Shown here: piece after piece, positions 50,840-56,827 of the stretch
Layout: each line of letters opens with the position of its first letter
Position numbering within the stretch: position 1 is the first letter of the stretch
Assembly (NCBI GenBank): GCA_951406725.2
Contig: OX597816.1
Span: forward strand, 62,434,001 to 62,498,000
Direction: 5' to 3'
From: Octopus vulgaris
Lineage: Eukaryota
Length of the DNA stretch: 64,000 nucleotides
Program-made: the position numbers and the translations under genes
The notes under the pieces: model-generated
Databases searched by the model: none
Told to the model about the DNA's origin: nothing
Seen by the model: the letters and a program-made list of their open reading frames with translations, nothing else

Positions 50840-50870
<31 letters not shown>

Positions 50871-50874
<4 letters not shown>

Positions 50875-51855
50875 CATGCTGGAAGTCAATAGATACCTTT
50901 AGTTTTCAAAAGATCTGATCTAAGCATCTTAATACATTTTCAGCAATGTAGAATTTACAATGCAATTATTCTTTTTTCATTCCAGTTACCATTATATTAA
51001 ACATGTGCGAAGATTAACAATGCCACGCACAAAATATTCAGCAGAACTGGCAGATTTTCAAGGAGGTCGTATTGTTGGGCAATCTGAGGCTGGTCTTAGT
51101 CAGCGAAAATTTGCTGAAAATCTTCAAATTCCTCTTGCTGCTATGAATAGAAGAATGATAGTGCATTTCGGAAGCCAAGGAAAAGGATCGATCCACAGAT
51201 TCCCGTCCCTGCCGTCACAGGCCCTCAAAAAGGAAGCTTCACTGTTTGAAGAGAATTGTGGAAACGAATCCCGTTCGAAGGCTTCTGGCATTGCAAAATA
51301 GCTAGAAGTTAATCCAAGAACCTCTGTTACAAAACTGCATAAGCTTGGGTATTATGGACGAGCAGCTGGAAGGAAACCTTTCCTTCAACTAATTAATAGC
51401 ATGAAAAGAAAGAACTGGGTAAAGGAGATGTCAGAAAAATTCAGTTAATTTTGGGATAGATTTATTTTCTCAGATGAAACGAGATTTGCATTATTTTTCA
51501 GACAGTTGACGTGTTTGGGTCTGGAAGCTTCCCAATCAAGAATTTGATTTGAAATGACTACAACCAACTATGAAATATGGCTGTATCTCTGTAATGGTAT
51601 GGGGAGCTGTCACCAACAATGGTCGTTCTGAGCTGATCGAATGTCTTGGAACCATAAACTTAAGCAAAAACTACTTGTGATATATTCACACGATAACATA
51701 ACCAAAATGAGTTTTTATTCATGGAAGATGGGGCTCCATGACACACAGCGAAAAGGAATCAATAATGGCTGAGTGTAAATGGGGTCAAAAAGCTTCCTTG
51801 GCCGAGCCAATCTCCTGACATGAACCCAATTGAAACTCTTTGGAGCATACTAGTA
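50871..51855 (+). mobile_element. Decayed Tc1 (DD34E) element, 3'-truncated
   Basis: [23 protein letters not shown]; FSDETRF; VMVWGAV; FMEDGAP*HTAK; [18 protein letters not shown]. Confidence 0.9.
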
Positions 51856-51868
51856 ACACATAGTGACG

Positions 51869-52389
51869 CAAATACTGAGAGGACACAGATAGTGTGTCTA
51901 TAGCCAGCTGGGGGAGATATCTTCCTGGGGCTACAAACTACAGTAGCATCCACCCTTATGGGTTAGCCATATTCAAATGGCAAATATGCGCCACGATGTG
52001 TTACCGCTACTGTTTATAACTCGCTCTGAGATTTATCATTGTTTGATTTCACTTTTTCAATATCAGTGTCAATGGACACTGGAAAAAGTATATGTATTTG
52101 TGAAGGGATCTGACTTCTCGTCGACAACCATGATTGTTACACGCTGATGAAAGGTAAACACCTTGAAACTCGGGTACGTGTGTATCATGTGTTGAAGACG
52201 GGGAGGATGACTCCCCTTCACAAATACTGAGAGGACACAGATAGTGTGTCTATAGCCAGCTGGAGGAGATATCTTCCTGGGGCTACAAACTACAGTAGCA
52301 TCCACCCTTATGGGTTAGCCATATTCAAATGGCAAATATACGTCACGATGTGTTACCGCTACTGTTTATAACTCGCTCTGAGATTTATC

Positions 52390-52392
<3 letters not shown>
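51869..52392 (+). mobile_element. Candidate non-LTR retrozyme: 352-nt unit present as ~1.5 tandem copies, with a hammerhead ribozyme
   Basis: 51869-52040 is repeated at 52221-52392 (3 substitutions seen). The unique part contains an intact type I hammerhead, the unit has many internal hairpins, and there is no ORF. Confidence 0.7.
52129..52189 (+). ncRNA. Type I hammerhead ribozyme
   Basis: Helix I ACACG/CGTGT (extended by CATGAT/ATCATG), core CTGATGA 52144-52150, helix II AAGGT-AAAC-ACCTT, GAAA 52165-52168, minimal helix III AC-TCGG-GT, cleavage triplet GTA 52174-52176. Confidence 0.85.
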
Positions 52393-52435
<43 letters not shown>

Positions 52436-52629
52436 ACGAATCGACGAACCGTTTCTGGATTAGAGCCGAAGGCTCATTTCCTTGTCAATATAATATTTCC
52501 TATAAATAGCGATCAATTTGGCTGCTATTTCTAATATTTTTGGTATGTGGTTTTGAGCAACTTGTTGCAATTAACCCTTTATTATAATTAATATATAGAA
52601 GAATATATAGAAGAATATATAGAATATAT

Positions 52630-52763: not shown

Positions 52764-52972
52764 TCAGGGCACTCCCAGATTCTCCCACCCCCTTTCATCA
52801 CCAGCCTTCTTCCTCTACTACCCTACCAAGAACTCACAACGACCTCCAACACACAAGTGCAAACAAGGGAGTCAGAGAAAGGCAGAATGTCACTTAAATC
52901 TGAACACTACTATAGAAATATTCTTTTAAAAAAACTTTTCTTCTAATTTTTCTAAATTTAATTATTTAATCG

Positions 52973-53016
52973 TTACAGTTGAAAAGGTCTCAAAATGACC
53001 GAAACCGGTACTGAAA
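52973..53016 (+). ncRNA. Minimal type I hammerhead-like motif with a U3:A8 core variant (PLE pLTR type)
   Basis: CAG-TTGAAAA-GGTC-TCAAAAT-GACC-GAAA-CCG-GTA-CTG: helix I CAG/CTG, helix II GGTC/GACC, palindromic ACCGGT helix III. Confidence 0.65.
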
Positions 53017-53071
53017 TGTTCACTATAAAATTATTTTAGCATTTTCTATTTTTGACTTGTTTTTTCATATA

Positions 53072-54474: not shown

Positions 54475-55100
54475 TTCTTTGATACTTTGATAGGTTTCGG
54501 CCATTATTGGCCCAGGCCATGTCTAACTTAATAGCACCACCTGGTGAAGTCTTTCAAGTCAGAATTTGTGCACGATGGCCCACTCAAGTAGAGAGTTATT
54601 GTTTACAGAGACATATCCGGGTGTAGGGGGTTTATCCGGGATTTCTTGAAGGAATCTGTCCAAAGACTTCTTGAACCCTATAGGGTCAGTTTCTGTTTTA
54701 ATGTGTTTTTGTGTAATGTTAAAGAGAGCGGGGCCAATTGAGGTGAAATAATTGTGCCGTATTGTTGTTATGAGATGAGAGTGCGATTTTTGTTTTGGGC
54801 GGATGGCACGGGGCCTAAGCCTTGGATGTACCTTAAAGGTGATGCCAACATCATTTGGGCAATGCTGATGGAATATTTTCCACATCATGCAGATGATGTA
54901 GCGCTCACGACGACGTTGGAGAGAATAGAGTTTTAGCTTGTCTAGTCGACCCCAATAGTCGAGGCCTGTCATGCCATCTATCTTTTTTGTGATTGCCCTT
55001 TGAAGTGCTTCAAATTTTATGATACCTTGTATTGTGTGGGGAGACCACAGTGGACAACAGTATTCAAGGTGGGGTCGGGCAAAAGTGGAGAAGAGAAGGA
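54475..55100 (-). mobile_element. CR1/L2-group LINE 3' end, 5'-truncated at (TA)n
   Basis: [61 protein letters not shown], plus 3'UTR. Confidence 0.9.
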
Positions 55101-55379: not shown

Positions 55380-55380
<1 letters not shown>

Positions 55381-55700
55381 ATTTTTGGGGAAAATTTTCG
55401 GTGAAAATTTTCGAAAAATTTTTGGTGACAATTTTCGAAAAATTTTTGGGTAAAATTATCGGTGAAAATTTTCAGAATATTTTTGGGGAAAATTTCCGTG
55501 AAAATTTTCGAAAAATTTTTGGGGGACAATTTTCGAAAAGTTTTGAGATAAAATTTTCAGTGAAAATTTTCGAAAAATTTTTGGGGAAAATTTTCGGCAA
55601 AAATTTCGAAAAATTTTTGGATAAAATTTTCGGTGAAAATTTTCGCAGTTTTTGGGGAAAATTTTCGGTGAAAATTTTGGAAAACTTTTTGGGAAAAAAC
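55380..55700. repeat. Degenerate ~37-bp satellite built from ~12-bp AAAATTTT-centred subunits
   Basis: Consensus approximately ATTTTTGGGGAAAATTTTCGGTGAAAATTTTCGAAAA, repeated about 8-9 times with variants. Confidence 0.9.
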
Positions 55701-56827
55701 TCCACAGAAACCTAAATCTAACGAAGAATTGTTTCGATTGTCGCGTGAAAATGGGCAGAAATTCCACAAGGGACAATCACAAAGCTCATCAGTTCAATGC
55801 CAAAAAGAGATTCTGAATTTAAAAAAGGGAATATCAACTAAATACTAAAGAATGTTGTCTTACCTATCTATTACATTTCAATTGTTCATTTTGCATGTTA
55901 AATAAAACTTTTTGAAAATTAAAGGTGTCTATTTACATCTGGCATGTCTGTATATATATATATGCAACTATGCAAATAATATTGAGTTTTCTTTGTAATC
56001 ACTATTATAAAAAGTAATAAAGTAGTTTTTGTGAGGTTAATACACCTGCCTAAAATAGCAGTCTAATGTACTTCTAATCACACTCCACCGTTTTAAAAAT
56101 AGAAGTGCCCGTGGATCGTCCTTCTTTATGCACCTTTTTTTCAATAAGTAACTTTTGTATCTTGTTCCAGTCCCAGACCGCTGAGAGGTTTACAGAAAGT
56201 AATCCTCAAACCATAGACACAGCCCAAATGCTTGCAATCAAAAGACGACAAAGAATCAGAAGATAGGCATCAAAAATTCTCCGAACTCAATGAATTGGAA
56301 CGTTTACCTGTCAACACACTACACTGGAATACTTGAGTTTATCATGTCAGAAAAAATAAAAAGCCAAACTTCTTGAACGAGATTTGCATTGAATATGAAG
56401 TAGGCTGGAACAAATGCCGCAAAGTGATTTTATTCTTTCTTCGGCCTAGGACTACCATAGCTGCCATGTCTTTCATCACAGGCCTACCTGGTCAGTGTTG
56501 ACCATCAGTTGAATGACAAATACACAGCTACCTAGTTCTTAGGTGTCCTTATCGAATATCATATTGGTCGTTCTTTTTCTGAGGAGGTTAATCCTCAGAT
56601 ATGCCTATCGATTTTCAAATGTCTCAACAACAATTTTATGGAATTACTCACAAGAAAGACAGATCGGTCATGGAAAGAATAACGTTACTGGTAGAGTGAC
56701 TCTGTAGAATAACTTTACTGGTAGATTGACTGTAGATTGACTCAGGGTACATTGACTCTGTTTAAAGTTGAACAAAACAACGATGACGTCAACAGCAATA
56801 AGAACAACAAACGTAGCAGCAGTAGCA

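Follow-up and report, generated by a model that had tools for sequence, protein, structure and literature searches.

The Octopus vulgaris genome harbors a dispersed family of 352-nt units with a type I hammerhead motif that files as a non-LTR retrozyme by every DNA-level feature, with cleavage and a circular RNA predicted. The insertions show two fixed 3' ends, often with an inverted second arm, and lie mostly in (TA)n; the family is therefore likely to be copied in trans by the reverse transcriptase (RT)-endonuclease of a Penelope-like element (PLE). Mobilization of the family by a PLE-type mechanism as such appears highly probable. The fuller reading that we favor, with reasonable rather than great confidence, is that of a non-LTR retrozyme copied in trans by the PLE enzyme, probably from a cut and ligated 352-nt RNA circle.

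The window copy and its surroundings

Within the window, the 64,000-nt stretch of DNA that was analyzed, the main arm of the element occupies 51869..52392 on the plus strand and comprises 1.49 retrozyme units (unit 1-352, then 1-172, with 51869 as unit position 1); its 3' terminus is the "long" fixed end of the family. The direct repeats at 51869-52040 and 52221-52392 are 172 nt each, lie 352 nt apart and are 98% identical, the three substitutions falling at unit positions 44, 120 and 123. Repeat comparison thus reproduced the period, repeat length and number of substitutions given in the preliminary description. An inverted stub of 17 nt (51853..51869, minus strand; the reverse complement of unit 120-136, with a 16/17 match to the common family sequence) was overlooked there, and is likely what remains of the second arm in an inverted insertion of the PLE type. 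Its outer end lies 7 nt beyond the usual short end, and the left junction has neither TA nor a duplication. At the right, a PLE-type "tail" of 43 nt (52350..52392, plus strand) leads from the short fixed end (unit 129, window 52349) to the long one (unit 172; 175 in other copies), and is followed by a (TA)n array without strand assignment (52393..52433), the preferred target of the family.

The element was thought to truncate a Tc1-type DNA transposon, but it interrupts one. The left part of this older, decayed transposon (50869..51853, plus strand) is broken at 51853 and has profile matches to DDE_3 (E 5.5e-4) and HTH_Tnp_Tc3_2 (E 5.3e-4), neither of which reaches the curated cut-off. The last ~260 bp of the same element, with the terminal inverted repeat, are found again at about 55695..55952 on the plus strand. 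Stacked insertions of about 3.84 kb separate the two halves, and the retrozyme copy is the left-most piece of the stack. The 3' end of a different PLE family (52768..53070, plus strand; its match to the terminal part of the L088 PLE is 91.5%) lies in the same stack, separate from the retrozyme. Also present are a further repeat with an opposite-strand joint between the TA array and a GAA/GAT microsatellite (52434-52595), which has good coverage in contigs of four small assemblies that may represent RNA or DNA; a minus-strand fragment recognized by eye as resembling a LINE 3' end (54500-55090, inside the split Tc1); and a degenerate minisatellite of A/T runs (55380-55695, likewise inside the split Tc1).

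As previously stated, the copy has one ribozyme only: a single motif with a paired stem II was found in the 64-kb window. The copy is thus likely to be a dead end and, seen in isolation, is inert and belongs to a class already known.

Copies, subfamilies and multimers

The ribozyme 26-mer of the window copy has 196 exact matches in the genome, a looser ribozyme pattern has 1,236, and the 26-mer at unit 63-88 has 1,501 exact matches, against 0 for the reversed-pattern controls; the proposed multicopy element is therefore borne out as a dispersed family. Identity is ~92-98% in subfamily A (that of the window copy), ~85-90% in subfamily B and ~70-84% in others. Samples of loci were taken from among the matches listed and lean to contigs C1-C10. 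No description of the 352-nt family was found in searches of the open-access literature, in agreement with what had been supposed.

The claim that a non-coding unit with a type I hammerhead forms multimers was upheld by arrays with up to nine ribozymes. Subfamily A has nine adjacent ribozyme pairs genome-wide, without any run of three, and its arrays reach at most about 2.3 units in the assembly. B-type copies provide 158 adjacent pairs, arrays of 6-9 ribozymes and a longest run of nine. Tandems of at least two ribozymes with a unit of 150-450 bp are thus found in the family; the window copy has one ribozyme. Three short hammerhead variants (L102, L104 and L105) were set aside: they do not match the unit, and a PLE ORF is absent from the 4 kb around them.

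Hammerhead motif and RNA fold

The type I hammerhead motif (52138..52182, plus strand) is made up of stem I (52138-52143/52177-52182), stem II (52151-55/52160-64), the boxes CUGAUGA (52144-52150) and GAAA (52165-68), and a stem III of 2 bp with a 4-nt loop, the palindrome of which lies at 52168-52175. Cleavage is predicted after GUA, 3' of 52176 (unit 308/309). An Rfam search gave 0 matches at gathering and no hammerhead family among 11 at E<=10; because Rfam misses the motif, its identification is based on the core consensus and on covariation, which is present in stems I and II. The motif reported as an intact hammerhead is real, but "intact" must be qualified in view of the minimal stem III and palindromic loop. 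Loops of this kind are reported to require dimers; in PLE hammerheads, according to excerpts of PMC4209133, ribozymes with a palindromic stem III loop function as dimers. The predicted stem III self-duplex amounts to -10.9 kcal/mol in subfamily A and -12.1 kcal/mol in B, and self-complementarity of the loop is kept in the variants seen across subfamilies. The catalytic boxes are kept in the 26 copies compared, the exceptions being one decayed copy and 6 rows with CCGAUGA.

The unit is non-coding, with a GC content of 43%, and its circular fold has a predicted energy of -125.6 kcal/mol (z -6.6; 0/100 shuffles as good), compared with -108.0 kcal/mol for the same fold of the opposite strand. Almost the whole unit had been described as paired, which overstates the 63% of bases that are paired in the circular fold. 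A long rod encloses the ribozyme (52094..52227, plus strand), with an outer 14-bp helix of 52094-52107 with 52214-52227; it is predicted by the circular fold and by covariation, 12 pairs being changed on both sides within helices 3 and 5. Overall, both-sided changes were seen in 23/90 pairs versus 10.8 +/- 1.9 in shuffles, using 26 copies picked to span the subfamilies, the structure of the window copy, and shuffles that ignore the relatedness of the copies. By this measure, the predicted structure of the unit is conserved across the family.

Each of four small assemblies, from 4 of 24 listed runs not on record as RNA, has a contig across 52176/52177 at a depth of 5-17; these contigs may derive from DNA and cannot show ends or circles, so that they speak neither for nor against a circular RNA. 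In 3/4 of these assemblies, a contig of 167-169 nt that joins at window 52191 represents a further diverged variant, the upstream 58-60 nt of which have no match to the window.

Insertion footprint

In a set of 58 loci, chosen irrespective of ribozyme from the unit 63-88 26-mer matches listed, 86 of the 95 arms end at one of two sites, unit ~129 (48 arms) or ~172-175 (38 arms). These two fixed 3' ends are 43-46 nt apart, and the 5' ends of the arms are scattered. The copies had been called circularly permuted; their 5' ends do vary, but with 3' ends fixed at two sites the starts are not freely permuted. TA is found on both sides at 31 of the 58 loci, on one side at 8 and on neither at 19, and 10 of the 19 non-TA loci have duplications of 10-15 bp. 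The (TA)n array noted at the end of the window copy is therefore present, but as the usual target of the family and not as a tail.

Inverted arm pairs were counted over all loci collected up to that point, a larger sample than these 58, after removal of known duplicates but with the near-identical L137/L138 and L109/L115 still included. Of the 100 pairs, 27 have a non-standard end. The 73 pairs with two standard ends divide into 72 short+long and a single long+long, and no short+short pair was seen. This pairing implies a strand asymmetry, and its near-strictness limits models of PLE action on the two strands of DNA. The two arms of one insertion often cover the same unit positions, which would rule out L1-style twin priming on one monomer as an explanation.

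Insertions of PLEs are characterized by partial tandems, an inverted truncated copy, a one-ended tail and a (TA)n bias (10.1101/2021.04.23.441226, in part). In vitro, the PLE tail corresponds to the spacing of two internal RT start sites, and the PLE protein with two-site internal initiation is a predicted dimer (both from excerpts of PMC11167929). The octopus family combines two fixed 3' ends, variable 5' ends, an inverted arm and an AT-rich target, and the suggested use of PLE machinery is thus backed by ends, inverted arms and targets alike.

Circular or linear template

We suggest a course of events in which copies with at least two ribozymes would be transcribed, two ribozymes would pair through their palindromic stem III loops, cutting at unit 308/309, and the monomer would be closed by a host ligase. 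A PLE protein dimer would then nick both strands of AT-rich DNA, and would start reverse transcription internally, near unit ~129 for one strand and near ~172-175 for the opposite one. Each cDNA might go round the template for 0.1 to 6 or more turns, now and then switching to another RNA, before the truncated ends of the two cDNAs are linked. A circle-derived, more-than-unit-length model has already been proposed, as excerpts of PMC4209133 and PMC7229834 indicate.

The units inside one insertion are largely clonal, fitting one template per insertion. In subfamily A, unit divergence is 0.021 within a locus versus 0.043 between loci, and in B it is 0.004-0.007 versus 0.028; discordance at diagnostic sites within loci was observed in 48/1,046 pairs in A (384 expected) and 0/153 pairs in B (65 expected). 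Variants private to the locus occur in all five units of L106, and private variants fill all units of several loci. Furthermore, of 150 arms extending to the cleavage site, 142 run through it, in a sample partly selected for ribozyme-bearing loci. Arms that pass the cleavage site and clonal units together favor a circular template, and we infer that circles are rather likely to be the main one. The subfamily A pairs, without a triple, mean that no long linear source array has been assembled for this subfamily, and the 6-unit arrays of B have kept PLE-type ends and inverted arms.

The more-than-unit-length shape of the window copy had been read as the product of copying round a circle or of PLE-style partial tandem formation. 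The part assigned to a PLE is backed, but a 1.5-mer does not by itself demonstrate a circle, since in vitro the RT of a PLE initiates within unprocessed RNA (PMC11167929, in part). It is possible, though we think it distinctly less likely, that PLE-mobilized copies arise from uncut linear multimers, or from linear monomers with RT jumping, and that circles, if any, are by-products. Mosaic arrays agree with such linear templates: two linked variants are found in 2/4 units of L329; one variant of L330 is present in units 1, 3 and 4 and absent from 2, in a register that is equal in both arms; and the 5'-most units of L331 and L332 come from another haplotype. A single monomer circle cannot produce these arrays. 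Unit-specific variants shared between loci also have the same index in mild excess (5/10 in B, chance 0.26; 12/17 in A, chance 0.46), several of them being C>T or G>A transitions. The arrays of 6-9 units in subfamily B could be used as linear templates, the minimal stem III suggests slow cleavage, and excerpts of PMC11167929 report unprocessed RNA as the dominant substrate of a PLE in vitro, with the hammerhead dispensable. Finally, 11 arms have their 5' start in the 305-320 bin, against some 6.5 per bin; this pile-up at the cleavage site is at most weak, and the self-complementarity of the rod blurs junctions near the site. Against linear templates, 5' truncation can only shorten an array, yet several haplotypes form homogeneous multimers; subfamily A arrays do not extend beyond the size given above; and locus-private variants occupy all units of a locus.

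A candidate PLE helper

A young autonomous PLE with many copies in the same genome is a candidate helper of the retrozyme; other PLE families are also present. Its 775-aa frame has RT (slightly below the Pfam cut-off) and GIY-YIG domains, preceded by a CX4CXXC motif, which is of the Neptune/Nematis type according to part of 10.1101/2021.04.23.441226. Tandems of this PLE have an exact period of 4,271 nt (2,230/2,230 identical). Copies terminate within (TA)n at either of two sites with a nominal spacing of 46 nt, which TA microhomology blurs to about 41-53 nt, and long+short inverted arms were found at 5 loci. Sequence homology between this PLE and the retrozyme unit was not detected (best E 0.18), and the 4,271-nt PLE was accordingly rejected as the sequence parent of the unit. 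Very young copies of an autonomous PLE at L246 (G000:C1:27837500-27847400) and L247-L265, with an upstream ORF, the 775-aa RT-GIY-YIG frame and exact 4,271-nt tandems, contain a minimal hammerhead with a GUAC palindrome; the youngest copies have the core CCGAAGA, older ones CUGAAGA.

There is very little likelihood that the retrozyme copies derive from an autonomous PLE as ordinary pLTR fragments with truncated 5' ends. Ends, tail and targets of the PLE type would suit that origin, and other retrozymes are related to pLTRs (10.64898/2026.07.22.740005, in part), but the longer octopus copies run on into the preceding 352-nt unit, up to nine times. A PLE RT was found in 21 of the 285 locus records with the unit (duplicates included), and the junctions read have (TA)n or unrelated DNA between the two, with no in-strand fusion of the unit to a PLE ORF among them. 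At these junctions no ORF with RT and GIY-YIG was seen flanked by the repeat as a pLTR, and no PLE match was found in the window. Unit-into-unit continuation, unfused junctions and the lack of homology to the candidate PLE largely refute the pLTR reading. Fixed ends attached to a PLE ORF, or a single-copy locus, had been named as observations that would contradict a retrozyme; as far as DNA is concerned the proposal stands, because none of the copies examined is joined to a PLE ORF. At L066 (6000-7850), a retrozyme arm has an inverted PLE of another family about 100 nt away from its 5' end without intervening TA, possibly as a chimeric second arm.

A Tx1-type LINE within the retrozyme

Some units contain a LINE of ~5.3 kb, the ORF1 of which has a CCHC knuckle and the ORF2 of which has the Pfam domain order AP endonuclease-RT-zf-RVT. 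ORF2 matches that of X. laevis Tx1 (E 1.6e-66, 35% identity), and the match of the endonuclease to that of human L1 is about 1e-9. Domain order and the X. laevis match point to a Tx1-type LINE. Located by pattern, 18/18 LINE 3' ends among the matches listed are followed by unit 250; by DNA search, 24/30 are at this site, comprising 20/21 at >=95.6% identity and 4/9 in a sister group. Thirty of the 37 LINE 5' ends found were read, with 27 after the unit ~266-271 region, 2 after a LINE plus the duplication, and 1 atypical.

The insertion point lies 26 nt upstream of the ribozyme core. In the window copy this target (unit 250-269; 52118..52137, plus strand) is empty; in LINE-filled copies it is duplicated over 17-20 bp. 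The duplication carries the host's own subfamily letters in 8/9 paired loci, which shows independent LINE insertions across subfamilies that are 70-98% alike, and a LINE situated inside the unit between host-matching duplications is a guest. The least probable reading of all takes the retrozyme for a satellite that expands through local duplications, or for a SINE-like element carried by the Tx1 LINE: variants of L326, the oldest long array, are spread over non-adjacent units as from local exchange, and Tx1 is physically linked to the unit, but copies are short and dispersed in the hundreds, 6-unit arrays have PLE-type ends and inverted arms, and the LINE lies between duplications that match each host's own variant. 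At L215, the last ~75 nt ahead of the LINE are B-type in an A-type host, suggesting that the LINE RNA may carry upstream host sequence.

The shared upstream flank of L031/L058 was considered as a PLE parent and rejected, as it is the Tx1-type LINE. L214 (G000:C7:109530000-109539999) is a two-arm long+short insertion with the LINE in both arms and odd 5' junctions, a composite that may have been copied by PLE machinery. Head-to-tail LINE pairs with only the target duplication between them occur at L213 (7172-9558) and L294. Sister-group LINEs at L318, L321, L323 and L324 (contigs C27 and C2) are off the retrozyme target and precede partly shared flanks; these are probably a duplicated locus.

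More tentatively, we envisage a three-tier system of RNA parasites, comprising a ribozyme circle, a PLE helper and a Tx1 lineage that tracks retrozymes, although we would give this less than even chances. The 352-nt circle, without sequence kinship to its helper, would be recognized by structure. The PLE dimer would prime one DNA strand at each of the two sites and roll round the circle. The Tx1 lineage would have tracked the 352-nt family across subfamilies, plus a second, 362-nt family, and from its position upstream of the ribozyme it might obtain its transcript and 3' end from host transcription and the hammerhead, as R2 does with rRNA. Which enzyme spreads animal retrozymes, and whether RNA circles give rise to PLE tandems, has hitherto been judged by co-occurrence and by similarity to pLTRs. 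In this genome, an intact PLE with many near-identical copies, a template of 352 nt and hundreds of young insertions bearing the PLE footprint make both questions testable in vitro, with a single protein and a single small RNA. A LINE aimed at a ribozyme element would be a new target class for Tx1; no description of a Tx1 aimed at a retrozyme was found in searches of the open-access literature.

Comparison with known elements

The closest metazoan non-LTR retrozymes are the ~350-390-bp repeats of Mytilus galloprovincialis and axolotl Rtz331/353, as described in excerpts of PMC7229834. Shared with these are the type I hammerhead, a low-GC unit of 150-450 bp, tandems and the lack of an ORF, as well as a highly paired circular fold, duplications of >4 bp and the presence of PLEs in the same genome. 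The octopus family differs in being mostly dispersed 0.3-2.3-mers with a PLE tail and inverted arms, features that those excerpts do not describe. Its ribozyme has a palindromic stem III of 2 bp, whereas efficient cleavage is reported there for most invertebrate retrozymes; circles were demonstrated in those retrozymes, whereas the octopus family is known from DNA alone. Retrozymes were concluded to be non-autonomous PLE derivatives in 10.64898/2026.07.22.740005, and PLE dependence is likewise our conclusion. That work, in the part available, draws on 35 genomes (31 vertebrates, 3 insects and 1 anthozoan, with no mollusc), its evidence being co-occurrence and similarity to pLTRs, and the terms "tail", "target site" and "Tx1" do not appear in this text; the octopus evidence consists of the integration footprint, and a homologous pLTR was not found.

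With EN+ PLEs, the octopus family shares partial tandems, an inverted 5'-truncated arm, a one-ended tail and AT-rich targets (excerpts of 10.1101/2021.04.23.441226), and with PLE pLTR hammerheads the palindromic helix III (part of PMC4209133, which also contains the circle proposal). The octopus unit differs from the PLEs of these sources in having no ORF, a 352-nt period, and a tail of 43-46 nt versus 30-40. The short+long asymmetry (72/73) was not seen in vitro for the anole Poseidon PAc, to judge from part of PMC11167929.

Target-specific Tx1 LINEs in excerpts of PMC4494074 include Xenopus Tx1 in Tx1D, Tx1-Mar in Mariner-N4_AMi and Keno in U2 snRNA genes. The octopus LINE resembles these in the zinc knuckle of ORF1, the AP endonuclease-RT-zf-RVT order of ORF2, a fixed site in a multicopy non-autonomous element, and tandem insertion into its own duplication. 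It differs in its target, a hammerhead-bearing retrozyme entered 26 nt upstream of the core, so that the ribozyme is left intact downstream.

A second retrozyme-like family

A weak profile match at L233 was rejected as a pLTR; it belongs to another retrozyme family, of 362 nt, without pairwise similarity to the 352-nt unit. This second family (L346-L375, e.g. G000:C27:19410235-19410872) has a 362-nt period and about 1,255 first-look candidates. Its hammerhead has an atypical UUGAAAA box and an ACGCGU palindrome, its ends lie at ~220-223 and 285 with a tail of ~62 nt, and its copies are 97-100% identical. At one locus of this family (L354/L355), a sister Tx1-type LINE is located 33 nt upstream of the core.
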